DNA from: Eukaryota sp. GEM-RC1
Lineage: Eukaryota
Length of the DNA: 64,000 nucleotides
Assembly: GCA_040285855.1 (NCBI GenBank)
Contig: JAUFOQ010000013.1
Location: 1,674,001-1,738,000, forward strand
Reading direction: 5' to 3'
Positions 1 through 53,262 of the stretch are shown here, one piece after another (the stretch's first letter is position 1; the number at the start of each line of letters is the position of its first letter). The notes under the pieces are model-generated. The model had not been told where the DNA came from and ran no database searches. It worked only from the letters and a program-made list of their open reading frames with translations. Position numbers and translations under genes: made by a program.

Positions 1-1
1 T

Positions 2-1147: not shown

Positions 1148-1319
1148 ACTTTATAGCTGACGATTAGAAACTTATTGATATCACAGTCTAAGTGCTAGCG
1201 AAATTCAAGTTTTGCAACAATAGATTAATGCATATTAATTTAGAAAATGTAAGAAGTTAAATACAAATTTTCCACATCAATACCAGAACTGTCTGTGTAC
1301 AACTTGGAATAAATCGAAT

Positions 1320-1480
1320 TTAAATACTTAGGGATGCTTCTTTACAGCACAAACACAGTTCGATCAATCTATACGGATCCATTAAACAATCTGAAACGAG
1401 TAATCTGAACAATTTTGAATCTGCTGGACCAATATTACCAAAAGTTTCCCGAAATAATGTTTATTCGATCAACTAACACT
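1320..1480 (-). mobile_element. Non-LTR retrotransposon 3' fragment
   Basis: Resembles 54580-54720 (shared GCTGGACCAATATTACCAAAA and ATGCTTCT). Confidence 0.5.
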
Positions 1481-1493
1481 TAGGTATGAACTA

Positions 1494-2086
1494 CACTTCA
1501 GGAAACATTTAGTCTCACTGAGACTAATTCTGTACTCAAGATTTTAGTTAGTCATCCCAAAATTAGTCTCACCAAATCTCAGTGAGACTAATTTTGTACT
1601 GAGACTAATTCTGTACTGACATTGATTTTGCACAATTATTGAAGTGTTAAAACCGACTTCACTACTCACATTTGCTCACAAACACACAAATGATCGTCAT
1701 CATCTAGGCTCCAATCAATTAGTCACCCTCAACTTATGGTAGCACGCTTTTTTCTTGATGAACAATAGATTGAACATGGATTGGAACTCGTTAAAAAGAC
1801 TTTCGAATTGTGTCGGAAGTCAATGATACTGAAAACGTGTATTCCAGATCACAAAACAGAATAATATGAGATCTGGATTCTATTGTATACAATTTAAACG
1901 GACAGAGGTAATTCAGTCCAGCTGTTTGATGTTATTATTATATGTCTATGAACTGTAAAGAACAGTTTAATTCAAAAAAAAGTTGTTGTATTGAAAATTG
2001 CAGGACAAATATAGTCTCACTAGAGTACTTTTTTAAAATGAGTAAGACAAAATTAGTCTCAGTGAGACTAAATGTTTCCTGAAGCG
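1494..2086. mobile_element. Non-autonomous TIR element (MITE), Tc1/mariner-like TA target duplication
   Basis: Left end CACTTCAGGAAACATTTAGTCTCACTGAGACTAATT; right end AATTAGTCTCAGTGAGACTAAATGTTTCCTGAAGCG (~36-bp TIR, 1 mismatch). TA on both sides (1492-93, 2087-88). Subterminal AGTCTCA/TGAGACT palindromic motifs are repeated. Confidence 0.85.
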
Positions 2087-2924
2087 TAACTGCCTCTAAT
2101 TACATAAGACTTACATGCATGTGTTCTTTTACTTGAAGTGATAGCTGTAAATTCTTCTTAATGGGTGTATAGCGGTTTCAGTACATTGGTTGGTGTATTA
2201 CTAGGGAAATACAAGATATATGTACACAACTAAACAGGGAATTCAAACATCAAATACGTAATTAATCTTTGTAAGTTACAGTTACACATTTTTCACATTT
2301 TTGTAGCAATGTAACCTTTTCAGTATCGAATACAGTTGCATATCATTTAGCCCAAAAGTTTTCGTTTGGAAGCTAGTATGACAACCCCATGCTAAAGTTT
2401 CGTAACTTTCTAGTATAATCATTTTGTGTTGTTTTATAACCAATTTTTGAAATCTCTGAATTTAGAATTAAACCAAACGAATGTAAAAAATTCTTGACTT
2501 GAGTTTAGTGAATCGGCACATTTGCGAAATCATCAATTTTGAATTATTGATGTAACAACAAGACGTGGTTTTCCAGATAGATAAAATCTATGATGATTCT
2601 TTAGATTTTTATGTTCCATTGTATAGGTATAATTTAACTTCTTTCATTTTCTGAATTAGTATGTATCAATTTATTGTTGCAAATAAACTCTTAGACAGAT
2701 CTTCAAAATTAAACACAATTTTTCTAAAATCTCGAAATATATATCTTCAAAAAGACAACACATAAAGCGGACAAAAACTGAATCATATGAATAAAACTGA
2801 CGTTCTTTCGTATTTGAATGATTATAAACATTGATGAAACCAGAAGGATTAAGACAATTTATTGCCACCAAGAATAATAACAGACCCAAATATTGTCAAA
2901 AATGTACAACAATAATAAATAATA

Positions 2925-3305
2925 ACGATTAGGTTGGAGCATGGAACGCAAATGTTCCGTACCGCGGCGATTTTAGGCGTACCGTACCGTACGTACGTAC
3001 AGAACATGTGCCGGTACTGTACTTTTGACCAACTAACATAGATTATTACTTTTTTGAACATGATGATCCAATGTGAGATTTTAACAGTGACAATTGTCAT
3101 ACATTCTACCGTTAAACAGATCTCATGATATCAAGATCTCGATTGTCCCACTTATTCAAATTTAGCATTTATAAATACATTTAGGTCATTCGTAAACAGG
3201 GCTTTTTATAGAATCAAATGACATCGGTACGGATGAAAGAAATCGGTACCTACCGATCCGTACCGTACGTACCAAATATTAAATATTTACGATTGGGTTG
3301 GAGTG
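2925..3305. repeat. Clustered CCGTAC/GTACGG motifs bounded by an imperfect direct repeat; probable DNA-transposon end remnant
   Basis: CGTACCGTACCGTACGTACGTAC at ~2978 and CCGTACCGTACGTACC at ~3258. ACGATT(A/G)GGTTGGAG occurs at ~2925 and ~3289. Confidence 0.4.
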
Positions 3306-3349
3306 CTGCTTATGATTATTTAGTAACACACCAAAAAGCTTCATAATTA

Positions 3350-4549
3350 CTAATGAAAAAGAGTCAAATGTTGCAAAATTGATACTTCGTTAAAAATGCT
3401 TTCGGTTTTTAAAACTTTTTGATTGGTAACTGTTATTGCATTAAGCTCTAATACAATATCATCGTAACAAAGCTCACAAATAGCAGTACAGTGACTACAA
3501 TTTGAATATCTGTAATTAAAATATTTCAAATATTTCAAATTTGTCAAGCAATTGGGTGAAAAGCTACAAGACTCTAAGGTCAATGTTCGCAAATAAGGTA
3601 AATAATTAGAAATCCTAATGTTTTCAATTTTTATCGACCCCAGTACCAAATGCAGCAAAGTAGACGGCAAATTTTGAAATATTGAAAGATTATGCAGGTC
3701 GTGAAGCGGTGAATAACCAAAGAAATTTAAATGTGACGGAAATACAATAGATGTCGTCACATCAACATTATCAAGATAGAGAGAATCCAAATTGACGAAA
3801 ACATTAAAATTTAAAGATTGATCAAAACATTCGACTAAATCTAGACGAAGATATTTCAATTTTAATTGATTAGTGCTCTGAAGCAAAAGTTCTGGAATAT
3901 ATAAGGTATTCAAACATGTTACATCATTTAAATTTGCACCAGAAAGTACCAAACCAATATCACTGTCATATGACGAAAGTCGAAGACCACACATTTTCAA
4001 TTTTGACAAACAATTTCGATATCGATTCAACAAAGCATTGTCGATGTCTACAAATGAAATGTCCAAAAATCTTGTATTTGCGACATTATCAAGTAGAAAA
4101 AGGACTTCGTCATGATTACTATATTTGGAAACTTTAATATTCAAATATTCATTAGATGGGATGTTCGAAACAGGAAAGTCTGTGATCGTCATAGTAATTG
4201 ATTGTGAAACAAGTGCAGCTGGAACATTATTGAAATAACAAAAATAGATCTTGGCATGAGGAATATCTTGAAAGAAAGAGATTTGAATGGAAGAAAAGCA
4301 ACACGGTGGAAAGTCTAAAATGAAAAGTGACACTTGGCTGAATACAGAGCTTGATAGAGAAACAAGATGGACAAAGAAATCTAAGACCGAAACTGAAGTA
4401 ATGATGACTGTGTCTTTATGAGAGAGAGCTCGAATAACAGCAGCAAAGAAAGCATCGGAAACGTAGAGAAACTTGAATAGAGACGCAGCAGAGGAGTGTG
4501 AGAAGACGAGAGATTGTAAAGCTTGCGTGAGATGAATGATGCGTGGCAT
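3350..4549 (-). CDS. Hypothetical protein with irregular leucine-rich repeats
   Basis: ~400-codon ORF with LxxLxL patterns (LKYLRLDL, NLDSLYLDN, YLRTLTLESC, NLKYLKYF). Start taken at the ATG of MPRIIH. Confidence 0.55.
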   Translation of the reverse strand: MPRIIHLTQALQSLVFSHSSAASLFKFLYVSDAFFAAVIRALSHKDTVIITSVSVLDFFVHLVSLSSSVFSQVSLFILDFPPCCFSSIQISFFQDIPHAKIYFCYFNNVPAALVSQSITMTITDFPVSNIPSNEYLNIKVSKYSNHDEVLFLLDNVANTRFLDISFVDIDNALLNRYRNCLSKLKMCGLRLSSYDSDIGLVLSGANLNDVTCLNTLYIPELLLQSTNQLKLKYLRLDLVECFDQSLNFNVFVNLDSLYLDNVDVTTSIVFPSHLNFFGYSPLHDLHNLSIFQNLPSTLLHLVLGSIKIENIRISNYLPYLRTLTLESCSFSPNCLTNLKYLKYFNYRYSNCSHCTAICELCYDDIVLELNAITVTNQKVLKTESIFNEVSILQHLTLFH

Positions 4550-5867
4550 AAAGAAAGATTGCCCCTGGACATGTTTTGGTGACTTCCAAAACATCCAATA
4601 AAAGAGGAAATATATACGTTTATATATTTGACTTCCACCAAAACCAATTGCCAAAGATATTGTGAATTTCTTTTCGGGTGCTTAACACCATTTTCGCTCC
4701 AGACTCCTAAAACGTTGTTCACTGTCATTCTTTCTCCTCCTGTGTCATCTGTTTCGATCTTGTTATGCCTTACGGTAACCTTCCTCAACCTCCTAGTGCA
4801 ATTGTTGTCATGGAAAACTCGATTGGTTTGATTTGAATTCTTTGAGGTATCATACTTCTTTATATACACTTGTTCGTGGATTTCCCTATACGGTTGCTGT
4901 GATTTCCTATCACAATAATAGACACTTCGACTCTCTGACCAGTTTCAGAAAGGTATCCGCCTCTTCTGATTCAATGTCAGCCAGATCCATAGACATAACA
5001 ACTTCCTCAACAGGCACTCGGCTACTCTGAGCGGAACTCATCACACATATCCTTCGTTCAGGTAGAAACGGTATCAACTCTTTTGGTTAACGAAAAGGAT
5101 GTTACATATAGTTGTTTGGATTGAGGGATTCTCTTCAATTTGTCTTATTTTTTGTAGTTGTTGAAAAACTGTCAGAACGTGTGAACATGAATACCCATTC
5201 TTTAAGGGATTAAGATGAACATGATAGGATCTATACATAATAAGAAGTTTTTCAAAAATACAGTGTATTAAAACGTTCTAATATTTGATCGAAAAAATAC
5301 ATAATGAGCTCATTATTAATAACACTCTAGACAAATTGATTAACATAGAATCAAAGCGAACATTTACTATACACAACGCTGTCAACTTGATGATTGAGCA
5401 AAGAACGAATTCTTAAGTTAAATCTTATGAGATTCAATCCAAAGGGACTTCTTCGTCTGGATGGATTAGTTGTTGAAGGAGAAGCGAAGTTTGGATAGAA
5501 TGTCTTCTCATTAGTAAGTGATTTCCTCATTGGAGAGCCCTAGGCAAAGACTTGAACATCACAAGGGGAAGCAGGGCTAAAGAAACTGTAAGGGAGATGC
5601 TGAGAAACAAGAAGTGGGATGACTAGCAGGAAGTGGTGGGTGTATGGAAGGAATCTAGAAGGGAAGTTGGCAATAGGATACCGAGAGCAAGTGATGTAGG
5701 ACTAAGAGAGTCAGAGCATTGCAGATACATAGGATGAGAAGACCTAGGATTAGCAAATGACAGTGTAAGACAAGGCTACAAATTATAAAGGTGTGACTAT
5801 AATAGGGGTGGGAAACTCAATATGATGAAAGGAAAGTGATTATGGTTGACCGGAAACTTCGACACTA

Positions 5868-6221
5868 TGGCACAACCACGTAAGTGTTTCACTCGGTCGT
5901 GTGCTCTGAACTCGCTGCTTATACCTTCAGCAGTTCACCAGATTCGGTCTGACATTCCTCATGTCACCGAAGTCTGCCATGAAGCTTCTTTGCTTCTTCA
6001 TTCTTTCCTTGTCACTTTCCCTATAGCGGCCAGAGCTATTGCGGAACAGGATGTCTGGTATCTCTTTATGACCGTCATCAACAAAAGTAGCTTTCCTGCT
6101 CCTCAAACTTCGAAAGGACAAAGGCTTTTGTTGAATGTTTTCTATGATGGTTTTCTTCCAGAGTCCCCTGCTTCTTTTGTTCCTCCTTTTACTTTGGAAC
6201 ACCAAAACTTTTTAATTTCTT
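5868..6221 (+). pseudogene. Probable Fanzor N-terminal fragment, truncated by the LRR-cassette flank
   Basis: MAQPRKCFTRSCALNSLL...IRSDIPHVTEVCHEASLLLHSFL resembles the recalled Fanzor1 N-terminal pattern (xKcxLxs...I...v..v..i..ea..ll). The ORF runs into TTGACTCCAATATTCAACAC, which also occurs at ~8706. Confidence 0.45.
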
Positions 6222-8238: not shown

Positions 8239-8969
8239 ACACCTCTTTTCAATCTCACCTGTTTCTGTACCTTATCAATAACGTGTTTTGTTTTTAAGAT
8301 ATTCTAGAGAAAAAATATCCAATACTGGGTCGATTAGTTAATTTTACATAAATTACTAAATTTCAGATGTACAAAAAGCGGTTTTGTGTGTTGACACAAA
8401 CACAAAAACTTTTGTTGACAACACCACTACAGTGTACATACATCTAATAATCGATATCCGCAAAGTCCAGATTGCCTATCCGGAAATTCTCCCCTACTTT
8501 GGATAGCCGAAATTGTAATTAACATGTCTATAAACTCTTTCTTCAGATATTAATTGTGCAATTCCTAAAACAATTCTGAACATTAGATTTAAAAAAGCAC
8601 AATCGCAATTTCAATAACATGTACTTGCCTATGTAGAAGCCGCAGAAATTAATTTAACATAACTAGGTCTTCGTAAATTTAACATCGTCATATGTGTTTC
8701 TGCTGTTGACTCCAATATTCAACACAACAAAAGTACCAGTAAATAACGTGTGTTATTCACCAGGGTACGACTTAAAATCTGCACCTGAACACCTGCTAAA
8801 CTACTATGATATTTGACCCTGTCACGGAGTTTTGTTTGGGATAATGGTTGTTCTGAGCTAAATGATTTTTCAAGTGTGTATTATATTCACCGATTAATTA
8901 TTGTACTTTTGATGGGAAATTAATTATGATCAATGACAAATGTGATTTTTTTATACAACGAAAACTTGT

Positions 8970-28677: not shown

Positions 28678-29685
28678 CAGGGATGAGGTAAAAATTATTC
28701 CAGTGAGAAATAATTCCCGTATTATATACGGGATTACGGTACGGCTTCTCTTTTTGTTACGGGAGTACGGACAGAAAATATTTTCCGTAATTTTCTCAGT
28801 CTTCTAAATCAAGGGAAAAATCCGGACGCTCCAGCTGACCAGGATCTGAAGACTACATCAACAACAATGCATTGCTAGAAAATTACATCTGCATCTTGAA
28901 TATATTCTTGCTGGAAACAAAGGTTGTTCAACGTCTGTTCAGTATTGCAAAACACCGCTTGGGTTCGTTTAGAAACAGGTTAACTCCTGAACCACTGGCA
29001 ATGGAACTGTTTCTCAGATCGAATAAAAAGTTGTGGGATGAAGAAGTTCTTCGTAAAGCTTTGACTCTGAAACCAATAATAGAAGTACATATAACTGATT
29101 AATAGTAATAAACAGTTTATTGATGGAGGCTACAAAAATACATATAATTATAACAGCTATGAAACTCTAGCCACCCAAAATTCCTGGTCAACAGTACCAC
29201 AGTTTTAATACCACTTTGTGACAATTGAATTAAAAACTTGGGCATCGAACGGAACAAAGAAACAACCAAACGGTTATGCCAAATTGATAAGTTAAATCTC
29301 TTATTCTGAGACTTACACATAGATCCGAAATCAGTTAAAAACTTAGAAACCATTTCACTAATGCTACCAAAAATCGAAATAGCAAGCGGAACAAATACAA
29401 ATTTTGAATAGAAATTTTGATTGAGTTTAGCATTATTATTTATTTTTGGAATACAAATGATTTTTACTTTTTGGCTGTTTCTAGGTGGTTCAAACCTTTG
29501 AATTTAAGCCATTAACTTAATTGATTAATAGTGATCCTTTGTATCAATTTAATATAGTTTTGTCATCCTTTGTTTAGTAAATGTACGGAAAGAATATATT
29601 CACCGTATATTCCACAGTACGGAATAATTTACGGCAAGACAAAAACAGAGTCCGTATTACGGCCATATATTCTACCCCATCCCTG
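28678..29685 (+). mobile_element. hAT (Ac-like) internally deleted element
   Basis: Termini CAGGGATG...CATCCCTG. Imperfect 8-bp TSD CCCAGAAG/ACTAGAAG. Subterminal TACGG/CCGTA motifs. Remnant of the hAT C-terminal dimerisation domain VQRLFSIAKHRLGSFRNRLTPEPLAMELFLRSNKKLW (28920-29040). Confidence 0.85.
29110..29430 (-). mobile_element. LINE 3' fragment nested in the hAT element
   Basis: FVPLAISIFGS...KSQNKRFNLSIWHNRLVVSLFRS; homologous to 49300-49700 on the plus strand. Confidence 0.6.
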
Positions 29686-30652
29686 ACTAGAAGGCAACAA
29701 GGTTCAAGACATGTAAATCGATATGTTTCTGTACCTTATCAATAACGTGTTTTGTTTTTCAGATAGTCTACACAATAAATATCCAATACTGGGTCACTTA
29801 GTTAATTTTACATAATTTAAGATGTACAAAAAGCAGTTTTGTGTTTTGACACAAAGACAAAAACTTTGTATTGACAACAACACTACAGTGTACATACATC
29901 TAATAATCAATATCCTCAAATCCCAGATTACCTATCTGGAAGTTCTGGTCTACTTTGGAAAACCCAAATCGTAATTAACATGTCTATAAACTCTCTCTTC
30001 AGAAATTAATTGTGTATTTCCTAAAACAATTCTGAACATTAGATTTAAAAAGGCACAATCGTAATTTCAATCACATATACTTGGCTATGTAGAAACCGCA
30101 AAAACTAATTTAGCACCACTAGGTCTTCGTAAATTTAACATCGTCATATGTGTTTCTTCTATTGACTGCAATATTCAATTCAACAATTTTGGTAACTCTT
30201 TGTGTATCACTATCAGTTTTACTGACTGAATGCAAAAGCACGTTTATGAAACATCACTGAGAATAAGTAAAGCATCATATTTTGCATATGATAGACAATG
30301 CAGTCGTGATAATAATGAAACTGTACATTGGTAATTCGATGGTAAATGTATAGTAGAAATTAACAATACTTCGAATACTAATAAATTTCTGTTGCTGTTG
30401 AGAACAATAGCAAAAGTACCAGTAAATAACGTGTGTTATTCACCAGGGTAGTATTTAAAATCTGTACTTGAACATCTGCTAAACTACTATGATATTTGAC
30501 TCTGTCACGGAGTTTTGTTTGGGATAACGTTTGTTCTGAGCTAAATGATTTCTCAAGTGTGCATTACATTCACAGTTTAATTATGGTGCTTTTGATGAGA
30601 AATTAATTATGATTAATGGAAAATGTGATTTTTATATGTAATGAAAACTTGT

Positions 30653-31261: not shown

Positions 31262-31344
31262 TTCGTCTCAACAATTTTAATAATGAAACTGTACATAGGT
31301 AATTCGATGGTAAATGTACAGTATCATTTAACAATAATTCTGAT

Positions 31345-32918
31345 ATACTCACTTATGGGTTACTCCTTCAGAATTTCTTGAACTCCTGGCTAGCCACACA
31401 GACCTTTTCTGTGGTGAATAGCCCTAATCTTTCGCAGTGGTTTACTTGCCGTTCTCGTCAGTTGGCAGTTAATGTTAAGTCGTCTCTGCCCAAAATATCC
31501 AGAGCTTGGATTAAAAATTTTCTATATGCCCATTGTCGGGTCATTGAGACACCTCGTCAATTTTCTTCGCATCTTCTTTATCTCTTTTATAATATTCCAT
31601 TTAATGCTCCTTCTTTTGTTAATGTTTCCATTGACAATCAGTCTGAAAAAATCTTTTTACTTAACGCTGTCTACTTTATTTTCCATCTTTTCGATCGTTG
31701 TCCTGTCTCGGAAGGACTTTTATCTTCTGCTGACCACATGAATGTTTCTCCTAAAGAAATTCGTGAATTGTTTATCTTTAACCTATCAATTGCACAATTC
31801 TTAGAAACATATTTAAGTGATTTTTCCCATTGTTGGAGACGGCTCCGACTGATCCCCCTAGCTTCTCACAAAGGGTCAAAACTGTTGGATGTACCTCCAA
31901 ACATCTTCAGAAGCAATGGAAGATTCCCTCCAGCTACAGGCACTAGGGCTAATCGATTTTTCATTTTGAACCAGAATTTGAAGAAAATTTTCAAAAATTG
32001 TCCACATGAAAAATTCAAAATGTGGAAGAAAAGTTATAAAAGAAACTAAAGAAAGTTAGCTCTCAAGTCAAATGGAAATGAGCTTTTGATCACATTTGAA
32101 TGGACTGAGCCAACCTTGGAGAAAGAAGGAGAGCCGCCAAAAAAAAAGAGGCGGACAAAACTTGAGATGCAGCAAGATCCTAAAGCCAACTGCATCAAAT
32201 CCATCAATTTAAAAGGATCGAAGAAGCAGCCTCGCCGTCGCCCTCCAACTGCCCAGGAGATTATCCCTGAAGGCCCATTAGTGGGTGTGGATCTTGGTCA
32301 GTCACGTCTTTGTGGTTACTATTTGAATGAAGAAAACCACGGACTGATCAAGTGTCCTACAGGCCGCCAGTTTCGAACAAACCCTTCTCCTCTCAAAATG
32401 TCACCGAACCAATATTCCGTGCAAAATATTCACCTATGTTTGAATCACTGGAATTTGGTAAGAAAACAGGTGTATAAAGAGAGTAACCGGTCGAAGTGGA
32501 AGTCGATTAAGTTCGACAATCGAAGACGCAGAGAACGCCGCTTTCGTGAAGCTCTGAATACTTTCCAAGAGATTTCTGGTCATCCAGAGGAACTGTATCT
32601 GGCTGTTGGCTCAGCAAACTTTCCTTCCCATTTCAGGAAAGTTAAAAGATATGGATCAGCTCGATGCTTTCGGAAATGGCTGAATCACCAAAAGGAGTAA
32701 AACACTTTCCCACCAGTGAATTCAACACTAGCAAACTGTCAAGCTGCTGTATGTCACTAAACGAAGCAACCAGATAGTGGCAAATGAGAGTCTGTGCCAA
32801 CTGCCATCAAGTATATGACAGAGATGTTTTCGCTGCTAAAAATATTCAGACTAGGAAGAAAGCAGAGTTGTGGCCTGGAAGATACGTCTGTCCTGAGGTA
32901 ATGTCGAGGAGAGTCTAA
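31345..32918 (+). pseudogene. Fanzor (eukaryotic TnpB-like RNA-guided endonuclease), probably Fanzor1; 5'-truncated with two stops and one frameshift
   Basis: ORFs 31378 and 32086 are in the same frame, separated by TAA at 32047. RuvC-I LVGVDLGQ, then LYLAVGSANF. After a shift at ~32690: FPTSEFNTSKLSSCC (RuvC-II E, 32718), TAG at 32775, RVCANCHQVYDRDVFAAKNI (Cys pair plus RuvC-III D, 32823), stop at 32916-18. LRLIPL and LKSNGNELLITF match the recalled Fanzor1 LxP and TDG-like motifs. Confidence 0.85.
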
Positions 32919-32919
32919 T

Positions 32920-33217
32920 GGAGAGATCGGTAGAAATGATAAACAAAACCACTTTGAGACCGATCTGGTGATGTATCTATCCCGGTAGATATGTTTGTCA
33001 GATCCATTTAGATAGATTAAGTCTAAGAAACTTTGTTCTGTGTAAGCAGTGTAAGCTGTGTAAGCAGTCGGTCTATCTAAGTGATGTAGCCCGTTGATGA
33101 AGATCATGATTGTCTTTGTCAGATGACGCTATATGTCTCTTACAACCTGTGAAAACAGGAGTGAATTTCATAATTGGGAGTACTACTAGTAGTAAGCAGT
33201 TGTTATGAAATTCACAG
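32920..33217 (+). ncRNA. Candidate Fanzor omegaRNA scaffold / element right end
   Basis: Consecutive stems: 32924-31/32959-66; 32971-80/32985-94; 33005-18/33070-83; CCTGT-GAAA-ACAGG at 33146-59; perfect 13 bp 33161-73/33203-15 enclosing the palindrome TACTACTAGTAGTA. Located directly 3' of the Fanzor ORF. Confidence 0.55.
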
Positions 33218-33272
33218 TACTTGATACCTGAATAGGTAGACATGCAAGGGGAAAGGATAATATATTTTATAA

Positions 33273-34481
33273 GGGTATAATTCAAAAACACTCATGTCCC
33301 AAATCTATATTTCATAACCACTCAAATGGAATTTGATATTACAAAAACACTCATTAGACCACTATAATATTGATATCAATAGAACCAAGTCATTGTTTTA
33401 CTATATTTTGATTACTATTATCTCATCTATCTATCGATATGCCATCTACTACTTGTTGGGACATGTCTTCATTGTATGTCCCTTCTTCTTGCAGATACTG
33501 CATCCGTACTTTCCTCGTCCTTTCTTCATCTCTGGTTCACCAATGCTGGTAAGTCTTCTTGTACGTGGCCTTCATCTTCCTCGTTTTTCTACTGGAAGCG
33601 CGACTTGCTCTTGAACTTCATCTTCAGTAGCCATCCAGCTGTTTCTGGCTCTAATAGCAGGTAACAAAGTACCATAGCATTTTAACAGAGTTGATTGATG
33701 ATATTCCTCACCAATCAACTCTTCTAGAGGTTTTCTCATGAACACAGCAACAGCAACAGCATGTACACACGGGACTTTGTCTTCTTGCCACTTTCCACAT
33801 GAACAGCTCTTCGTCATCTCATCAACAATAGCAGAATCTGCTCCCTGAACCTCAAACTGTTGGTTCTGAGCAGGAACAATGGTAAATGCTGTTGCATTAC
33901 CTAATAAAGATCTTACATCATCTGCCACTTGTTTTTACAATACAGGGCATTTTCTTTGCCTTTTCTAGTCTTTCCCCATTTTTATCATAGTTTTACGCCA
34001 TCTTATCTGCCATCTTATCTGCCATCTGTAACATCTAGATCAATGATAGGATCATTGTAGCACGCACGCAGTTCCCGAACGTAAGCTTGAATTTCATCAT
34101 AAGCTTCTTCAAAGCTTCCATACAAGTCCTTTTTAATCTTCTTCTGAGCTCGGTAAGCATTCTGATAGTTAACCGTAGCTCCATTTGATGCAACAACTGT
34201 CCTAATGGTGGCTGCTGTAGTTTGTAGATCATGCTGAATTGCTGTTACAACTGGGGTAATTGCAACAATCTTTGATGCTGTGAGGGACTCGTGATTGATT
34301 CTCAAGCCCGAGCAAGTATGTTGGAGATTGACGGAGTGAATCATGAAGGGAGATAAGTAAAGTCATTGTTTGTGAAGTATGTATATCAGAAAAGGTTCAT
34401 GAGTGTTTTTTGTAATATCAAATTTCATTTGAGTGGTTATGAAATATAGATTTGGGACATGAGTGTTTTTGACATTTTTCC
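33273..34481 (-). mobile_element. Mutator-like element (MULE), internally deleted, inserted in the Gypsy 3' LTR
   Basis: ~80-bp TIRs (TCAAAAACACTCATGTCCCAAATCTATATTTCATAACCACTCAAATG...). 9-bp TSD ATTTTATAA (33264-72, 34482-90). Transposase remnants VNLQHTC...VNYQNAYRAQKK and SWIM finger CSCGKWQEDKVPCVHAVAV. No DDE core seen. Confidence 0.93.
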
Positions 34482-34541
34482 ATTTTATAAATGGCAACAC
34501 CATACTTCAACACTGCCACATCATAACACCTGTGGCCAACA

Positions 34542-37500
34542 CTACCTCTTCTCTCTTTTCGAGTTCCTTGTTCTCTTGGCTACAGGTGACTTAGCTTTCT
34601 GAGATTGCTCGCTGGATACTCTTTTCTTCTTAGGCCTGTGGACAGTGGAGTCATTACTACTATTACTATTTAATTTAATAAACTCTGAGTATGCTTTCGT
34701 ATTCGTGATGTCTTTTAGGGGAACTGCTGAGTGTTCGCCACCAAACCAGACTACTGTGCAATACTCGCCTTCAGGGGTATCATATCGATCAAGGACTTTG
34801 ACCAAGATATGTTCTTCAGTATCACCCGAAGCAACAGCCTTGTGAAGCTCATCATCATTGGGTAAATCTGTCTGATAGATCTTGCATTGATGGATGCTTG
34901 CTTTACCAACGTGACCAGTGATCAAATTCTTGATAGACATGGAAGTATTGGAATCAATTGACATTACTAAGAATGGTCCACAATAACTACCATGTAGCTT
35001 GGATGACTTAGTTGCCTTGAGCACAAGGTCCCCTGCCTTAAAGGGATTAGGTTGAGATTTCTTAGAAGGAGCCTTACTCGATTGTCGAGCCCCTGCCTTT
35101 TCTCTCTTTTCTTTAAGGCGTTTCAGTTTCAGAGCCATGTCGTCGATGAACGAAATTTCCGAAGTGGAACATTCGATCGCTTTTAACATAGTACCGGGGT
35201 CTGCACCTGGGCTTATGTCGCTACCAAACATCAACTCGTAGGGGGAATGTCCCGTTACACTACTCTTAGTTGAATTGATTTGGAGCTGAACCGAAGGAAT
35301 GTATGTTGACCAATTGTCGTAATCATTGAAATCGACAAGAAGACGGCGTAGACTTTGCAGCACGTCTCTATGTCGTCGTTCCACCAGACCATTACTCTGA
35401 GAGAAATGAGGGATCGATCGACTGACTTCAATGGCCAGTAGGTTGCAAACTGCCTCGAATGTAGCGTTAGCAAACTCCTTGCCGTTATCACTATGGATAC
35501 AGAACGGTATACCAAAAATAGCTATTACATCCCAAACCAGGCGATATGCTACTTCAGTGCTATTCAGATCCTCGAGGGGGCTTAAAATGGTGTATCTGCT
35601 GAACGAGTCAACAAATACCAGTAGAAACTGGTTTCCATTTTGATCTTTTGGCAGAGGTCCTATTGTGTCGACGTTAAGTCTTGCAAAAGGTCGATTAGCC
35701 CATAGAGAACCCGTCGGCTCAATTGCCAGTTTACGGACAGGTGCCGTTTTCTGACAGGATGGACATCGATTCACGTGGTTGATCATGTCAACCTTCATGC
35801 TAGGCCAAAAGTAGCCACTATTGAACAGCTTTTCCAAACTATTTTTCAAGTTAGGGTGACCAGACTGGACGAGTCCGTGGAGCATGTAGAGGACTTTCTT
35901 ACGTAAGCTCGACGGTATCAGTATCTTATTCTTGCTGTTAACGTAAGTCTTGCTCTTAGGACAAAGGTTAGCTTTTGTGAATAAAGTGTCTTTTGCTTTT
36001 ATTGCCGTTAGCTGCTCAGCTCTGATGGTTGATAGCCATGAGTTGAACAGGGGCAACTTGCCATCTGTTGAAAGTTCACGGAGGTTGCTAATTACATAAA
36101 CTGAGTTGTCATGTGGTTGAGACTCGATGTAGTTGGCTTCATCATATCTCAAATCATTACGATTGAGTGTGATGTGATCCTCGGTGTGGCGTTCAATCAG
36201 ATTTACTGATTTGATTGTTTCCACTGGATTGCGGTCAATAACGCGAGAGAGCATGTCAGCCCAGTGGTTGTCTTCTCCTGCAACGTGTTCAATCTCAAAA
36301 CTAAACTCGGATAAGATGGGGATCCAACGTTTTACGATCCTATTCTTTTCTGGAGCGGATATGAGAAAGGAAAGGTTCCTGTGATCAGTGAAGATCACCA
36401 AGTGTCTACTTATGAGGAAGCTTTCTAGGTTTGATTCAGTCAGAATCAACAAGATTGCGTACAGCTCTTTCTGGATAGCTGACCAATTTTGCTGACTGTC
36501 GTTAAGGAGTCGGCTATAGAAGGATACCGGTTTTACCTTGCGATCCTTCAGTGGAGTGCCGGGTGGAGCTGGGGGTTTTCTTCCTGCCAGATGACTCCTC
36601 CTACGGCGATGTCCGATGCGTCTGTCGATATGATAATGTTCTTATCTTCGTCAGGTAAGTCTAGAGCCATGTTATTGATTATCAACCGTTTTATTTCGTT
36701 TAATAAGTTTTCATGTTCGTCTGTCCAGTAAATCTTCTTTGGTTTGTCTCTGGTTAGTTTAATAATCGGTGACATCAGGTCCGAGAAATTCGGAATCCAA
36801 TCACGGATGTAATTCAACGCGCCAATGAGACTTCGAACCTCAGGAAGTGTCTTGGGGGACGGTAGACTCTTTAAAGCCGAGACCCTACTCTCGTCAATGT
36901 GACGGGTTTTGTTCACAAAGTCGCTGCCTAGAATCTTTATTTTATGACTTGAAGTCGTGAAATGACACTTCTTTAAGCCAAACCGTACTCGGTAACGTCT
37001 GGCGCGTTCAAGTACGTTTGCGATTCTTGAAAGAAACTCTTCGAAGGTGTTGCCAATGACAATTATATCGTCGATATAAATGAACACACCTTCACAACTG
37101 AAGATTTCCATCATGATGTTTTGGAAGATTGCAGGTACATTCTTTAAACCAAAACATGCTCGTTTGAAGCTAATTGTGGTCTTATTGACGTCCTCGTCAG
37201 CTACTTTTAGCTGCCAGAAGGCTTTTGGGAGGTCGAGTGTTCCTATGAAATTTGCTTTCGATAGGAACTCCAGGGTATCGCAAATCCTTGGAAGGTTCGG
37301 CTTCACAGGTTTGGTATTAGCATTGATCCCATCAAGTCCACTGAAATCTCCAGTTAAACGAGGCTTGCGGTGGTCATTGTAGACGACCAAGACTATGGGA
37401 CTGCTGAACTTTCCGTTTGATGGTACGGCCCATCCTTTACGTATTAATTCATTAAAAATCTCCTCGGCTACCCGTTGTTTTGTGGGATTTAGCTTCCGGG

Positions 37501-38433
37501 GAGGACGAAAGACAGTGACGTTTTCGTCATAGAAGGGGATTGACATCGGAGAGCAGTCTATGCCATCGGGGTCAATGTCTTCTGAAAAAACGTCTGCGTA
37601 CTCACTTAGTGTTTTCAGCAATGTCTCTCTTCGAGTGGTGTCGTCAAGACGAATGATACAGCCAGAATCATCTATGAATCGTTCAAAATCGGAACCTGAG
37701 TTTGGATTTGATTGAGAGTCGCCGTTCACATCGTTAGAAACATTCAAAATTGATTGATTCCCGATGGAATTTGGAGGAGTTATCATCCTTGCGTCAAATT
37801 CACTCTCTGCGTTCAGGATAGTGCGGTGCTCTTTGTCTAGTTGAATGACTAAACCATCATCCGTCAGGAGTCCAAGTTCGTTAAGCAGGTCACGTCCTAT
37901 TAAAAATATTCCGGTACCAGGAATTATAGGAAGACAGTGCTTCATGTGAACGATGTTGGCCAGACTCCCGACGTTGAACGTCAGTGTACCAATTGCACTC
38001 CCCAGGGATGTTGCACGAATATTATTCGCTGAAAGGTAATCGATGCTGTCATCGATCATATCCATTCACAGAGACGGGCTGAATCTTGTGTAATGACAGA
38101 GCATGTTGCAGCTGTGTCAAATTCGCCGGTTACTGGCACATTGTTGATCAACAGTCGAAAAGATAGGGACCCTTTTCCACTATCATCGACCCCTAGGTTC
38201 TGTAAGCTGTTTATTTTGTTACCACTACCCAGTGAGTCTAAGGACGCTATGGGGTTTGAATATTCTAGAGGGGTGTTGTCGATTTTGTTAAGTTGAAAAA
38301 TGTAGTTACTATCTTTATTTGATTTTTTTGAACTTCTATCGTCACCAGCTCTACGTTTGTGTTGTCGTTGGGGTTGCTCTGCTTTCTTTGAGCGGCAGTC
38401 TTTGGCAAGATGACCCTTCTTGTTACAATTGTA
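34542..38433 (-). pseudogene. pol: Gypsy pol (protease, RT, RNase H, integrase, chromodomain-like tail) with frameshifts
   Basis: Protease GEFDTAATCSVIT (~38110). RT LDLPKAFWQL...FGLKN...YIDD. RNase H STDASD...KELYAI...TDHRNL. Integrase H..GHP..CPSC, NVDTIG, HSDNG, NGLVERR. Frame shifts at ~38068 and ~36575. Confidence 0.92.
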
Positions 38434-39783
38434 TCAAACGACTTCGTCTCTGGGACCTCTTCTTTGGTCCTGAGATTGTTCTCTTTTCTTGGAGCCTCTG
38501 TGTTGTCGTCTTTCGGCGGGCTTTTCAGTTGGGCGAGACGTGCTAACAGTAGCGGAAGAGCGTTTCCAATCAATGTACGCGGCCTTGAGTTCATTAATGA
38601 ACTGAGGCAATTCGTACTGATTGTCTCTAGAAGTGAGACGATCAACCCAATGAATTTTCAGATCCGTTAATAGGGACGATTCACCTTGGGGATCTAACTT
38701 CTTTAACATGACGTCGGCAATTAGGTTTGCGGGGACATGTTTGCGTTCGTGTTGGTGGACTGTGGGAACAGCAGTTGACCGTTGAATGATTGTAATCACA
38801 CCTTTCAAATAGGCATTGATTGCTTGAGTGGGCTCTTGGCTAAGAGTGCACTGAACTCTCTTGAGGGCCTGGATAGCCGTCGAAGAGGATGGAAATTGAG
38901 TCAGTAGAAGGATGTATAACCAAAGTTTCTCATCACTCGTACCTTCCATCTCCAATTCATTCAGCATTCTCCAGGAGTAAACCAGTTCTGTGCTAATAAA
39001 CTTAGAACATTCAGATGGGTCTACTTCCTTGAGAGAAGTGCGTACTAGGTCGAAGCCATGTACAGGTTCACCTAACTCAGTAGAATAGGGGCCATCACCT
39101 TGACCACGAATTTCTTTTGACCAGTACGTGAAATCTAAGATAAAATTTAAAATTTTCTTCGGGTCCTCACTGTCTAGAGTTTTTGGACGGAATTTGTTTT
39201 TAGATTTTAAAGTCGATTTAGACGTTTTGGGGTGACCACGACCAGAGATAGCAGAGGAGGTCAGATGAGATGTTCCTTGGTCTTCTTCGGAGGAGCTTGG
39301 TTCCTCGGGTTCAGATGGGGATGGCTCTCGACGACTCTCTTCTCGGCGTTTCCATTCTTCTTGTTGGCGTTCGAATTCTTTTCGTGCTGAAGCAGGACTA
39401 GGACTATACACTGGAGGTCTGTATCCGGGTGGTGTCGGTGATAGTGACGGTGAACGTAGAACAGTAGTTCTTTTCTTCTGTTTCACTCTTGGAGTTTTCT
39501 CCAGTTGACTTGTTGTCAAGGGATCTCTCGAAGAAGCACTACTTTCCTGACGAGTGAGTTCGTCGAATTCGGACTTCTTGATTTCCCCAGTTGTACCCAA
39601 GGTTCGGTCCAGAATTTTGTAAACGATCACTGTTTCAGGGCGTTTGCTTTGACCTGGATATTCTTCTTGAGACGGAAGTTTCGTTGAATCAAGAAGTTCG
39701 CGGTCATCATGCAGGGCAGCATGGATTTGCCGTTCCCTTTTATTAGAACCCTCAGTAGGATCGATCAATTGGTCACCTCTCAT
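38434..39783 (-). CDS. gag: Gypsy gag-like ORF
   Basis: 449-aa ORF upstream of the protease. Its TGA replaces the first Cys of a CCHC knuckle (*YNCNKKGHLAKDC), and the frame continues into the protease. Confidence 0.75.
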   Translation of the reverse strand: MRGDQLIDPTEGSNKRERQIHAALHDDRELLDSTKLPSQEEYPGQSKRPETVIVYKILDRTLGTTGEIKKSEFDELTRQESSASSRDPLTTSQLEKTPRVKQKKRTTVLRSPSLSPTPPGYRPPVYSPSPASARKEFERQQEEWKRREESRREPSPSEPEEPSSSEEDQGTSHLTSSAISGRGHPKTSKSTLKSKNKFRPKTLDSEDPKKILNFILDFTYWSKEIRGQGDGPYSTELGEPVHGFDLVRTSLKEVDPSECSKFISTELVYSWRMLNELEMEGTSDEKLWLYILLLTQFPSSSTAIQALKRVQCTLSQEPTQAINAYLKGVITIIQRSTAVPTVHQHERKHVPANLIADVMLKKLDPQGESSLLTDLKIHWVDRLTSRDNQYELPQFINELKAAYIDWKRSSATVSTSRPTEKPAERRQHRGSKKREQSQDQRRGPRDEVV

Positions 39784-40904
39784 TCCGAAAGGGACGATTG
39801 TTCCATATCTAGTGGGGGCATAATACTATAAACTTGCTCCGACGATTTGCCAGGAGGTAAGTTGTCGTATACGGGGGTTTCGGGAAGCCACGCTGTGCTT
39901 ATTGCAACATCTTTGCATGCAGCTTTCTTAGTGGACAAGCTGTATTGGTACCATGCTGGGTACTCATATACCAAACTCTGTCCGGATGGATGAACCGTTT
40001 CCATCAGTGGTTCGACTGAGATTCCATGAGCTGGATCCCAGGATTCACTAACGGGAAATCTATATGTGTCCCCGCGACGTGGGTCAAACTTACCTGCAAG
40101 GTAACGAGTGATTACTTCTGGGGGAGTCATAGGAGGTACATTTCTGATTAGGAAGTGCTTGGCTTCCTTCAATCTTTGACGAAGGAGCACATTGAAGGGA
40201 TCGAACTTGGCCATTTGCCACAGTTGGCGATCGTCAATTCCAATGAGCGAGTCCTGGCTACTGGCGAACGGAATGAGCTCATTCGGTATCGCTGCTCTGT
40301 GCCAATTTTGCGGGTTTCGAGATGACTCGGGGAACTGGCGTTGGACTAGCTTTGCCTTCTCTGCATTGTTATATCTCCTGCGCTCCTCGTCGATCATATG
40401 TTTATGGGACTGAATAGCCCAACCATGAGTAGGTTTGGCATATAACAACGTGTTGACCTTGTCGGCTGCAGCTTTTAGTTCTTTCTGCGTTGCTTCGAGA
40501 CGTAGTTTATGGAACTCACGTTCTTCCTCCCGTGACAAATCTTCAATTTGAACGACGTCAGGGGGATACGACAGAGGAACCAGCCAGAGGACCGTGAGAG
40601 GTTGTCTGGTTTGCAGCGACATCCAAAGCACCTTGAGGGGTTGTTTGGGAGTTGATTCGTGCAAAGCACCTTGAGGGGTTGTTTGGGAAATATAACCATC
40701 CAGAGGACCTTGAGAGGTTGTCTGGGAATCATCCAGAGGACCAGGATTGGTTGTCTGGGAATCTTTCAATGGAGCTTCATCTCCTCTGGAACCAGGTGGG
40801 GAACCAGAAGGACTTCGAATGCGAGGACCAAACATGGTTGTCGCTTCTCCTTCATCTCGAGGGCTTCTAGAAGCTGTCGAGGGATCTTCAGTTCGAGGAC
40901 TCAT
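39780..40904 (-). CDS. Additional 5' ORF of the retrotransposon, unknown function
   Basis: ~375 codons from MSPRTEDP, with internal SQTTxQGPLD-like repeats (40570-40770). Its stop overlaps the gag start (ATGA). Confidence 0.65.
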   Translation of the reverse strand: MSPRTEDPSTASRSPRDEGEATTMFGPRIRSPSGSPPGSRGDEAPLKDSQTTNPGPLDDSQTTSQGPLDGYISQTTPQGALHESTPKQPLKVLWMSLQTRQPLTVLWLVPLSYPPDVVQIEDLSREEEREFHKLRLEATQKELKAAADKVNTLLYAKPTHGWAIQSHKHMIDEERRRYNNAEKAKLVQRQFPESSRNPQNWHRAAIPNELIPFASSQDSLIGIDDRQLWQMAKFDPFNVLLRQRLKEAKHFLIRNVPPMTPPEVITRYLAGKFDPRRGDTYRFPVSESWDPAHGISVEPLMETVHPSGQSLVYEYPAWYQYSLSTKKAACKDVAISTAWLPETPVYDNLPPGKSSEQVYSIMPPLDMEQSSLSE

Positions 40905-41508
40905 ACGAGCTGTCGAATCTTCGTCGCTTCTACCACGAGAAGGACAATAATTATTGATACCTGAATAGGTAGACATGCAAGGGGAAAGGATAATATATTT
41001 TATAAATGGCAACACCATACTTCAACACTGCCACATCATAACACCTGTGGCCAACATACTCTTGACTTCTCAGAATAATTTTAGGAGAAACAAATATGAT
41101 ACTCCCTCGACCATAATTGAAAGTTCTTCTTTAATTGAAAAACTGGACGTATTTTATATGTTTGAGAGTAGTCAACTTGGTAAGAATGTTTCTGAACATC
41201 AAATTTGATCAAAAGTTTTTGTTGAATTATTGTCTTTAAACAATTCTGTTCTCGAAAGCTCTTTTAGCTCACGGTGTTTTCGATGTAGAAAGAACTTCTG
41301 TGAGTTTCAATGCTAGTGACTTGTTTATTTTATGATATTGAGTTCTAGTTGTTGATATTAGTGGATTGTATCAATTAATAATTAATAAATGTGTTTGGCT
41401 TGAATACTAATACATTATTGATTTTAATCATAATAAATGTAGCTTAAAGAATCTAATAGTTCTAGAAATGGAGTTACGCTCTAGCTGTGTTTCCGTAAAT
41501 AAATAAAC

Positions 41509-45353: not shown

Positions 45354-45404
45354 TACACATGTTTTGATTTTGAGATCAAGAATTTTTGTTGTATATTTTT
45401 ATTT

Positions 45405-46150
45405 CATTGACAACAACACTACAGTGTACATACATCTAATAATCAATATCCTCAAAGTCCATATTGCCTAACTGGAAATTTTCACCTACCTTTTCCTCAT
45501 AATGTCTTCCAAGAGATTATAAAGCGCTAGATACAAAAGTCACCATACCTTTAAAAATAGCAAACACGATTCGATTTTCCAAAATCTAAGATCAAAAGTC
45601 CTAGATGTTTTTTATTTTACAGTCTTCACAAATATTTCAAGTAATGATGTGGCCGATTCACCTTAAGAACCATACAGTGAAAATCCAAACGGGTACAACA
45701 AGTAATTCGAGTGTGAAACCAAATTCAATAATTTCAATTTAGCACAGTATTTTTCAATTGTAAATTTTTAACCAATCACAGAGGGTTTTTAACAATAGAT
45801 TTAGTAAGTTTCTTGTTGGAACCATTCCAAACATAGTTAGACATAACATCAGCAATAACGAAAGAACCATCGAGACCAGGAAATATGACATCACCACGGC
45901 TACTTCCAAACGATTTCTCAACATCTGTATCATCAACAAATTAGCCAGAACTGGTTCTTAAAAGGAAATTATTCCAAAAGATTTACACATACAATATACT
46001 AGTAATTGATGCCTTACAGAATCATGAACCTTACTTCTCAAAGAAGAAGAAAAACGCTTACACTTTAATAAATGTGTAGGTGTTACAGATTGCCCACCTT
46101 GACATTTCAAATTATGGAAGACCGATGAAAGACTATATAATAACAATATC
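45405..46150 (-). mobile_element. Degenerate RLE-type non-LTR retrotransposon 3' part
   Basis: KCQGGQSVTPTHLLKCKRF...SKVHDSVRHQL...CMCKSFGI; an inverted homolog of 52490-53262, including the 3' UTR. Confidence 0.75.
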
Positions 46151-46880: not shown

Positions 46881-47685
46881 TTACATTTATAATAATAGAA
46901 AATTATTAAACAAAAGTGATTTACCGACAATATATTTATTGTTGGTCGAAACAATAAACAATATTATTGCAATATATTCCAAAATATATTTAAATATACT
47001 TAAAGTAGAACATTTTTAATTTTATTGAACGATTTGACAGGTGTTGCATTCGAAATAGAACGACTCTAGCTCTAGCTACATGTACATTTTATATACGTGT
47101 TTTGATTTTGAGATTAAGAATATTGAAAATACAATTTTATACATTCTAGTCCTTCTTTACTGTGACATCTCCCAGCCGCACAAAGTATGAATCATTTCTT
47201 GAAATGATAAAAATTTCAATACTAAAAAAACTGTTTCCAGATGAAGGGGACAAAAAATTCACATCAAAATAAAAGCTATGATTCACTGGACACAGAAAAT
47301 TCCTGGTCAACACCACAACAGTTCTTATACAACTTTGTGATAATTGATTTGACACACATTTCAATGTTGATGTGTTTGTGTTCTTCCCTCGGTTTTGCCT
47401 CTGTCTGGATTAGTAATAAACCGAGGGAAGACTGTATAATAATAATATTTTCTATAATAACAATCTCTTTCTCACAATATAATCGAAGTCATACAACTTG
47501 TAGCACCCACTGAGTGTTGTTTCTTGCTTTTCATGCCAAGTTTTTACCCTTCTTGAGCTCCTTCAACAGCATAAAAGTCTTCTTATATTTTTTGGATACA
47601 GACTTTGAATTAAAGTATTATACTGTAACTTCTGGATAACTAACCAAAGATCAAAAAAAACTGTTTTGAACCAATTCTTCAACAA

Positions 47686-49299: not shown

Positions 49300-49700
49300 C
49301 TTGTTTAATCATGTTCAACTCTAAGTTGATACATTTACAACATTGTTTATTAGTGATTATCAATGATAACTGGCTCGGTCGTTTCTTGAATCCTGATGTT
49401 GCTAAACTCAATCAAAACTTATATTCATAATTGGTATTTATTCCATCTACTATTTGATTATTCGGTAGTATTGGTGAAATGGCTTCTCAGTTTTGGACTA
49501 ATTTTGGATCTACTACTAAGTAGTTGTATGCGTAAGTCTCAGAAGAGATTTAACTTATCAATTTGGTATAACCGTTTGATTTTTTCTCTGTTCCGATGTG
49601 ATGTATGTCCAAATTTGTTAAATTGATTTTCACGAAGTAATATTAGAACTGTTGTAATCTTGACCAGGAATTTTACATGTCTAGTGTTTCATAACTTTAT
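49300..49700 (+). mobile_element. LINE 3' fragment
   Basis: KSQKRFNLSIWYNRLIFSLFR; homologous to 29110-29430 and 47280-47350. Confidence 0.55.
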
Positions 49701-50115
49701 ATTTATCCGAACAACTTACCTAAAATTGAATTAAAATATCTGTGCTTTGAACGAAACAACTTAAACGTTAACCTGTTCAACCAAAAATTCTTCAGAAGGT
49801 CCACTATTACAAAGGTCAATTGAAAAAGCAGCGAACTCGGGACTATTAATTTTAGCCAAGCTAATACTATTATTAAAGTCCAAGAGTTCAAACTCCTTGT
49901 CAATGTATTTGGCAGTTTACATACAGCAGACGGAGAGATGAATAGTTATTTATATAGTTGTGTCCCCTCAATCTAAAAACAGTTTTTTAGATTATTGCAC
50001 TATTATTTTTTCAGCAGTTCAATAAAGTTAGAAACTTACTGTAACTGTTCCATGAAAAGTTCTGATAGAGTTTAGGAAATTGTTGGTTTTCATTTACGCT
50101 AATTCTCCACCATCA

Positions 50116-52489: not shown

Positions 52490-53262
52490 TTGTCATGATG
52501 ATAACTCTTGGTTATTAAACATGCGTTTACGGTCATATGTTTGACCTGATGAACTTCCGAAATGCCGATGTGGGCAATCTGTAACACCAAGACATAGATT
52601 GAATCTGAACCGTTTTACTTCCTCTTTTAGAAATAAGGTTCATGATTCAGCAAGGGATCAATTACTTTGCATGTGTAAATCTTGTGGAATAGTTTCCTTT
52701 TACAACCAGTTCTGGCCGGTCTGTTTGATGATACGGCTGTTGACAAATCGTTTGGAAACAGCCGTGGTGATGTGATATTTCCTGGTCTCGATGGATCTTT
52801 CATTATTGCTGATGTTATGTCAATCGATGTTTGTAATGTTTCCAACAAGAAACTAGCTAAATCTAGTGCTAAAAACCCGCGGTTGATTGGTGAAAAACTT
52901 AAAACGTAACAATATTTGGATAAACAGAAATTATTGAATTCGGTTTCACACTCGAATTACTTGTTGTACCCTTTTGTATCTTCACTGTATTGTTCTTTAG
53001 GTGAATCTGCAACATCATTATTTGAAATCTTTGTGAAGATTGTAGACGGAAAAAATCTAGGACTTTTGATCTTAGATTTGGGAAAAATCGAAATGTGTAT
53101 GCTATCTTTAAAGGCATGGTGACTTCTGTATCTAGCGCTTTATTTTATCTTGGTAGACATTATGAGGATATTGTAGGTGAAAATTTCCAGATAGGCAATC
53201 TGGACTTTGAACACATTGATTATCAGATGTATGTCTAATGTAGTGTTGTTGCCAATAAAAAA
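52490..53262 (+). mobile_element. Degenerate RLE-type non-LTR retrotransposon 3' part
   Basis: CRCGQSVTPRH...KVHDS...SRGDVIFPGLDGSFIIADVMSID...EKLK (zinc knuckle plus restriction-like endonuclease pattern). Ends with AATAAAAAA. Contains stops and frameshifts. Confidence 0.75.

Follow-up and report, generated by a model that had tools for sequence, protein, structure and literature searches.

We analysed a window of 64,000 nucleotides from Eukaryota sp. GEM-RC1 (contig JAUFOQ010000013.1, positions 1,674,001 to 1,738,000 of the forward strand; coordinates below are those of the window), whose gene content is eukaryotic. It carries an open reading frame (ORF) for Fanzor1, a eukaryotic RNA-guided DNA nuclease, broken into two pieces by an insert of ~25 kb. 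Behind the stop codon lies a strongly folded tail of ~300 nt, at 32920-33217, and this is followed by a Ty3/Gypsy retrotransposon that has itself received a Mutator-like element (Table 1).

Table 1. Features of the Fanzor1 locus and of its folded tail (P, pair probability; WC, Watson-Crick)
Feature	Position	Strand	Evidence or detail
Fanzor1 ORF 5' piece, codons 1 to ~118	5867-6219	+	tblastn with P0015 residues 1-124, 94% identity
~25-kb insert splitting the ORF (LRR array, kelch/ephrin-like gene, others)	6220-31335		approximate bounds
Fanzor1 ORF 3' piece, RuvC-I/-II, zinc finger, RuvC-III	31336-32918	+	stop codon 32916-18
Predicted 5' multi-helix domain	32920-33141	+	z -5.0 (+), main helices P 0.86-0.98
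Helix, front domain	32962-80/32985-33004	+	predicted fold
Helix pairing	32962-68/32998-33004	+	6 WC + 1 G-U; minimum-free-energy pairing, P 0.86
Helix	32970-80/32985-95	+	predicted fold
10-bp stem	32971-80/32985-94	+	7 WC + 3 G-U
14-bp stem	33005-18/33070-83	+	11 WC + 3 G-U; triple 9-mer in its loop
Helix	33084-106/33111-34	+	predicted fold
5-bp hairpin, GAAA tetraloop	33146-33159	+	5 WC pairs, P 0.99
Terminal hairpin	33161-33215	+	13 perfect pairs + inner 5-bp stem, P 0.98
Left 4-bp target duplication of Gypsy	33218-33221		identical to 41057-41060
Gypsy LTR, 102 bp, TG...CA, interrupted	33222-34541	-	repeat match
Mutator-like non-autonomous element in LTR	~33273-34481		66-nt inverted repeats 98%, 9-bp duplication, SWIM finger remnant
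Ty3/Gypsy internal region: RT, RNase H, integrase	34542-40954	-	Pfam RVT_1, RT_RNaseH, rve
Second Gypsy LTR	40955-41056	-	identical to first over compared parts
Right target duplication + putative pre-insertion flank	41057-41075	+	from LTR pair + duplication

The frames 5' of the tail carry RuvC-I, RuvC-II, a zinc finger and RuvC-III, and the last ORF piece matches Pfam Cas12f1-like_TNB (PF07282) above the cut-off (E 2e-7). With a profile built from 11 sequences, SpuFz1 (8GKH) was the best of 17 PDB sequences (E 1.1e-9), in an alignment that starts at the WED motif and runs through to the C-terminus. Fanzor1 nucleases have a TnpB-type RuvC with a D-E-D triad and a C-terminal zinc finger; further traits described for them are a rearranged RuvC-II glutamate about six residues ahead of the zinc finger (PMC13565253), and an enlarged N-terminal half with a WED 'TDG' motif (PMC10711439). 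The triad of the intact relative P0015 is D440, E583 and D618, of which E583 and D618 are invariant across the 11 sequences and D440 nearly so; E583 lies six residues ahead of position 590, where the finger starts with a serine here, followed by cysteines at 592-593. The family proteins are 646-659 aa long, and their WED motif reads SNG, TNG or TDG across the alignment, in line with the TDG of SpuFz1. The profile, Pfam and motif tests thus agree with the sequence-only reading, which had placed the tail downstream of a Fanzor: judged by its triad, RuvC-II glutamate and enlarged N-terminus with WED motif, the gene is a Fanzor1, nearer to that group than to Fanzor2 or TnpB. A fold search returned only TnpB, Cas12 and Fanzor chains, with Cas12f above SpuFz1, and was non-discriminating with a weak model (pLDDT 52); a first structure model (pLDDT 31) was unusable and the second was confident in the RuvC part only. 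An Atlas search gave mostly giant-virus clusters (PF07282/PF26935, score 0.98). Six skoliomonad Fanzor proteins (P0015, P0026, P0038, P0058, P0060 and P0062) show adjacent cysteines (xxCC) in place of the first zinc-finger pair, and in the same six a run of basic residues between the WED and RuvC regions looks like a nuclear signal.

Of 887 candidates in a protein search, 8 matched; every one of the 8 carries the name Eukaryota sp. GEM-RC1 or TZLM1-RC, the latter of which we take to be Skoliomonas litria. The intact family ORFs encode 646, 648 and 651 aa and keep the D-E-D triad. Family clusters of 11 and 82 members are present in two annotations, while a third holds further families with several equal-length copies each; the large clusters and the equal-length copies point to recent mobility. 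With a cut-off of E 0.001, a profile search reached 34 proteins. Ten of the matches were examined: seven are skoliomonad, five TZLM3-RCL families among them, and three are metagenome proteins at 19-25% identity. In the related skoliomonad species, protein identity is 57% and 31-37%. In a tree of 15 chosen rows, from which reference Fanzors were left out, the family joins two TZLM3-RCL families (99/99), and a second group holds three further skoliomonad proteins. GEM-RC and TZLM3-RCL are reported as Skoliomonas isolates, which are free-living metamonads (PMC11316075). The host of the window is thus probably a skoliomonad.

The copy in the window is dead and cannot make Fanzor1 protein, although intact ORFs exist in relatives; neither its dead state nor the 25-kb split had figured in the sequence-only reading. 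Its triad and zinc-finger motifs are present yet scattered over broken frames, with internal stops at 32047-49 and 32775-77 in the 3' piece and a frameshift within an A run at 32690-93. The relative P0003 ends at the identical frameshift, which may have been inherited from a common ancestor or may be an assembly error that arose more than once. At the insert junction about two ORF codons were lost and no target duplication was seen, and both insert ends lie within an LRR repeat unit. The insert looks like the product of break repair or a captured segment. It contains host-like DNA: tandem LRR genes, together with RING/B-box-LRR, kelch and ephrin-like genes. The relative P0010 is likewise a Fanzor-LRR chimera. 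Relative to all compared relatives, private changes occupy 9 of 514 positions of the 3' part; a number so low suggests recent decay and a tail still similar to that of active copies.

Two other features around the ORF were considered and set aside. The left junction at ~31345 was ruled out as the left end of the element, with its TAM, because the ORF continues at 5867-6219. An antisense ORF at 32757-33107 was taken to be spurious (six candidate homologues, none at E up to 1). Ahead of the Fanzor start codon, a purine-rich tract at 5400-5860 (peak GC skew 0.62, peak AT skew 0.34) has no ORF and no fold; it may be the 5' region of the Fanzor element.

The fold of the tail is real and sharply bounded. 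On the plus strand its minimum free energy (MFE) is -94.3 kcal/mol (z -5.49), and none of 200 shuffles was equally stable; the sequence-only reading had proposed shuffled-control folding, and the structure that it had picked out withstands it. The minus strand reached -67.5 kcal/mol (z -3.13) in the shuffle test. Among 428 tile-strands across the window, in a tile register set on the coordinates of that earlier reading, the plus strand of the tail ranks first, with a composition-regressed residual z of -3.65. On either side folding falls to shuffle level, both in the final 300 nt of the ORF (z -0.25) and in the native downstream DNA at 41061-41360 (z -0.3), and sliding-window folding with 120 nt gives the same bounds. 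Four separate sub-domains each fold significantly on the plus strand (z -3.3 to -5.8). The front part, 32920-33141, is weaker on the minus strand (z -2.4, against -5.0 on the plus), while the terminal 76-nt unit, 33142-33217, is nearly equal on the two (z -5.8 and -5.0). Averaged over each of the main helices, the pair probability is 0.86-0.99. A search for pseudoknots of at least five pairs found no candidate in the tail; an Rfam search gave no match above E 0.78 and a tRNA search none. No second copy of the tail was found within the window, nor terminal repeats enclosing the whole of it.

Several elements of this structure had been recognized from the letters by eye, and the 10-bp and 14-bp stems, the GAAA-tetraloop hairpin and the triple GTGTAAGCW repeat are all present. 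The 9-nt unit of the repeat occurs at 33040, 33049 and 33058, with one extra match in the window at 28332. The pairing of 32962-68 with 32998-33004, which had been proposed as an alternative, exists but belongs to the MFE fold; it competes with 32924-31/32959-66, a perfect pairing of 8 bp, and the two are mutually exclusive. The closing helix of the front domain has 5-7 bp, and its partner changes with the folded bounds. The terminal hairpin extends over 33161-74/33202-15, within which 33161-73/33203-15 form a perfect 13-bp inverted repeat; together with the GAAA hairpin it makes up the 76-nt unit. The 7-bp first stem-loop described for the solved Fanzor1 RNAs has no clear counterpart in the tail. 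The leader [AT]TCC, as seen in several of the published RNAs, has two occurrences in the tail: one lies in a loop, the other immediately 5' of the 14-bp stem.

The preference for the plus strand is harder to read from the base pairs. It had been argued that, because every non-Watson-Crick pair in the 10-bp and 14-bp stems is G-U on the plus strand, selection acts on an RNA of that sense. Only G-U pairs do occur in these stems, but the claim is true by construction where stems come from folding the plus strand, and extending the register of the 14-bp stem by two positions includes one A-C. A strand-neutral stem scan gave 13 G-U against 4 A-C, an excess that is not significant against base composition (p 0.16; p 0.025 against 1:1). 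In ten plus-strand helix segments G-U makes up 15 of 82 pairs. When G-U pairs were disallowed the strand gap became smaller (z -3.6 on the plus strand, -2.9 on the minus), and with DNA parameters both strands folded alike (z -4.3 and -4.7). RNA folding favours the plus strand over the minus by 27 kcal/mol. We regard the G-U evidence for an RNA of plus sense as weak.

The two parts of the interrupted left LTR are each identical to the right one (33222-33263 to 40955-40996, and 34482-34541 to 40997-41056). This match and the 4-bp duplication indicate that the Ty3/Gypsy element inserted 6 bases past the last hairpin, and that the native flank resumes at 41061. The Mutator-like element entered the left LTR after the Gypsy insertion. 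The Gypsy LTRs are very short (102 bp), and the first ORF of the element begins inside the LTR, at 41018. N-terminal parts of two TZLM1-RC Fanzor-fragment records, P0046 and P0064, match the Gypsy tail at 44-47%, suggesting that related Gypsy elements lie in or beside TZLM1-RC Fanzor copies too. Further dispersed repeats in the window, some of them inverted, occur at 45402-46108 and 52559-53260, and at 8410-8500 and 29865-29944; others were seen at 29107-29432, 47225-47354 and 49400-49794. The dispersed repeats are probably remnants of other mobile elements.

Comparison of positions 1-5870 with the right side produced chance-level matches only, and neither terminal inverted repeats nor a target duplication of the Fanzor element came to light. 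Two matches, a direct one of 8 nt at 4628 and an inverted one of 10 nt at 4661, were rejected as ends, being out of register and at chance level. With the Gypsy element removed, a helix of 11 pairs (P 0.94) could be drawn between the ORF tail, 32903-14, and 41101-11; it failed the null tests. Random tails gained as much in 43 of 300 and 87 of 300 trials, the counts in duplex tests were 821 of 2946 and 1280 of 2949, and the LTR tail paired equally well as a control; only the short duplex taken alone, a post-hoc choice, was rare (11 of 12796). The stretch 41057-41075, made up of the right target duplication and the DNA next to the hairpin before the insertion, is a candidate for the original guide, or for the last bases of the element. 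The sequence-only reading, which had the guide come from flanking DNA, had also missed that what lies past 33221 is now Gypsy LTR and not native flank.

Published omegaRNAs derive from the 3' non-coding region adjoining the right end of the element (PMC10432273, PMC10530073). The tail fills this slot on the sense strand, between the stop codon at 32916-18 and the next foreign DNA, and the finding of no pseudoknot candidate of at least five pairs is as expected for Fanzor1 RNAs (PMC10711439). From its position, strand and sharp bounds, we believe it likely that the tail is the omegaRNA scaffold region of a Fanzor1 transposon family. The sequence-only reading, which had proposed a candidate omegaRNA, is partly upheld: a structured sense-strand element does occupy the slot behind a Fanzor1 stop codon, though the G-U argument is weak. 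Protein-guided scans for a second DNA copy returned 251 pattern matches in metagenomes and 177 in viral contigs, none of them confirmed, and the hairpin pattern had 0 matches in viral contigs. A 21-mer match in metagenome contigs, at one locus (L001), was put down to chance since nothing is shared past the 21 bases.

By analogy with characterized systems (PMC10432273, PMC10530073; review PMC13565253), the plus strand of an intact element would be transcribed through the tail into the flanking DNA, and the transcript would be trimmed to the scaffold and a flank-derived guide of ~15 nt. Loaded with this scaffold, the nuclease would cut element-free alleles that offer a TAM and a match to the guide, and repair of the cut allele would restore the element by copying. 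The last two hairpins, 33146-33215, are most likely part of the scaffold proper, and the 220 nt before them may be an extended scaffold or part of a precursor; as the tail is longer than published Fanzor1 omegaRNAs, the true scaffold may be just the last ~76 nt. In the window copy the LTR now stands at the predicted start of the guide, in place of the guide or the last scaffold bases, and, with its protein lost, this copy is a relic that would work in trans only, if at all.

A more far-reaching version can be imagined, which we think rather improbable as a whole. Here the entire 300 nt would be one omegaRNA, longer than any tabulated Fanzor1 RNA, and its 220-nt front domain would switch between an mRNA 3' end and a mature guide RNA by means of the exclusive pairings behind the stop codon, 32924-31/32959-66 and 32962-68/32998-33004. 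The system would belong to a skoliomonad radiation that includes FEN1/EXO1-like fusions, and the guide would now consist of the first Gypsy LTR bases, aiming intact enzymes at a rival transposon.

The hairpins might instead act as DNA, providing the right-end signals of a Helitron- or HUH-type single-strand transposon, with the RNA fold as a by-product. DNA hairpins tolerate G-U poorly, and for ends of this type a short hairpin or two is enough, where the tail has 250 nt of helices; the G-U content of the plus-strand helix segments and the 27 kcal/mol by which RNA folding favours that strand speak against such a role. The significance of DNA-parameter folding on both strands, the 13 perfect pairs of the end hairpin and the failure to find terminal inverted repeats or a target duplication between 1-5870 and the right side would all suit it, as would the known presence of Fanzor1 in Helitrons (PMC10530073). 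We judge it distinctly unlikely; DNA-end and omegaRNA roles can, moreover, coexist. Equally unlikely, in our judgement, is that the tail serves as a structured 3' UTR through which the processing, stability or translation of Fanzor mRNA is regulated, with the guide RNA a small part of it or encoded elsewhere. Such a UTR accounts for a fold that starts right at the stop codon and exceeds the listed Fanzor1 omegaRNAs in length, and the Chlamydomonas small RNA lacked the conserved upstream part of its fold (PMC10530073), yet the Fanzors characterized in two studies draw their RNA from this very slot (PMC10432273, PMC10530073). For the first 220 nt, a 3' UTR role is compatible with the omegaRNA reading.

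That an unrelated foldback element or a host non-coding RNA lies behind the gene by chance seems very unlikely. The locus does collect insertions, namely the 25-kb block, the Gypsy element and the Mutator-like element, but the tail has no second copy in the window, no enclosing terminal repeats and no match in the Rfam and tRNA searches, and its fold starts only a few bases past the stop codon. Chance folding of ordinary intergenic DNA is scarcely credible: although the coordinates had been chosen by eye for structure, 0 of 200 shuffles are as stable, the tail is the best among 428 tile-strands and its four sub-domains separately reach z -3.3 or lower.

Read as an omegaRNA, the tail is unusual in its length. 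The RNAs in three Fanzor1 structures measure 75-150 nt (PMC11423790), and coordinates printed in supplementary file 5 of PMC10432273 give lengths of 71-229 nt for the 11 Fanzor1-labelled rows among its 20, a tabulated range that the ~300-nt tail exceeds. The best solved protein match is SpuFz1 of Spizellomyces punctatus (Spu-1; PDB 8GKH; Saito et al. 2023, PMC10432273), which at 638 aa is similar in length to the skoliomonad family proteins (646-651 aa). Spu-1 and the family have in common a single ORF followed by a structured tail, and many copies, which in Spu-1 are full and partial; Spu-1 copies also have Gypsy insertions within and beside them (PMC10432273). Spu-1 differs in its 30-nt terminal inverted repeats, of which none were found for the window element, in a first zinc-finger pair that is CxxC rather than SSCC as here, and in its 75-nt scaffold, a size that the last 76 nt of the tail match.

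Multi-stem scaffolds are also known from the Batrachochytrium salamandrivorans Fanzor1 (229 nt; PMC10432273 supplementary file 5) and from GtFz1 of Guillardia theta, whose RNA has four stem-loops in ~150 nt (Xu et al. 2024, PMC11423790); both are shorter than the tail, in a comparison of size and architecture. The region past the first stem-loop is described as varying freely in Fanzor1 RNAs (PMC11423790). The GtFz1 RNA overlaps the end of its ORF, whereas the ORF end in the window is unstructured. For the CrFNuc fRNA of Chlamydomonas Helitrons (Jiang et al. 2023, PMC10530073) the conserved 3' fold exceeds the mature RNA, which suggests processing; there, conservation and expression were demonstrated, while the tail in the window is known from the sequence of one DNA copy.

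In the metamonads, Fanzor1 had already been listed before the present family, with three occurrences for Aduncisulcus paluster (PMC10432273 supplementary file 3). None of the eight searchable supplementary files of that survey contains a skoliomonad name, and a full-text literature search found no paper on Fanzor together with Skoliomonas, metamonad or Aduncisulcus, though a listing in survey supplements could escape such a search.

One related TZLM3-RCL Fanzor family is annotated, in predicted gene models, with an N-terminal XPG/FEN1-like nuclease (PF00752, PF00867, TIGR03674). The record P0073 (1323 aa) continues through to the RuvC end and P0071 has the same join; P0069 and P0068 belong here as well. 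Three records of the fusion family contain the motif DVEPNPGM, which we take to recall the 2A ribosome-skip signal, its usual final proline missing. Speculatively, a fused 5'-3' nuclease could resect the cut and so favour homing. No paper on Fanzor1 with XPG, or on Academ with XPG and transposon, was found, and none of the literature matches listed in a further search (12 of 259) describes the fusion in its title or the opening of its abstract. The XPG/FEN1-Fanzor fusion is possibly of more interest than the omegaRNA tail.

The design of omegaRNAs has already been published and the copy in the window is a relic, which limits the significance of the present tail. As leads it offers its unusual length and the competing pairings just past the stop codon, along with the nuclease fusions of the family. 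With intact family proteins on record, the scaffold, the guide border and the TAM are directly testable. A 300-nt scaffold, if real, would widen the known size range of Fanzor1 RNAs, and, if our reading is true, the tail would provide the RNA component of a Fanzor1 family that is divergent, recently mobile and found in skoliomonad metamonads.
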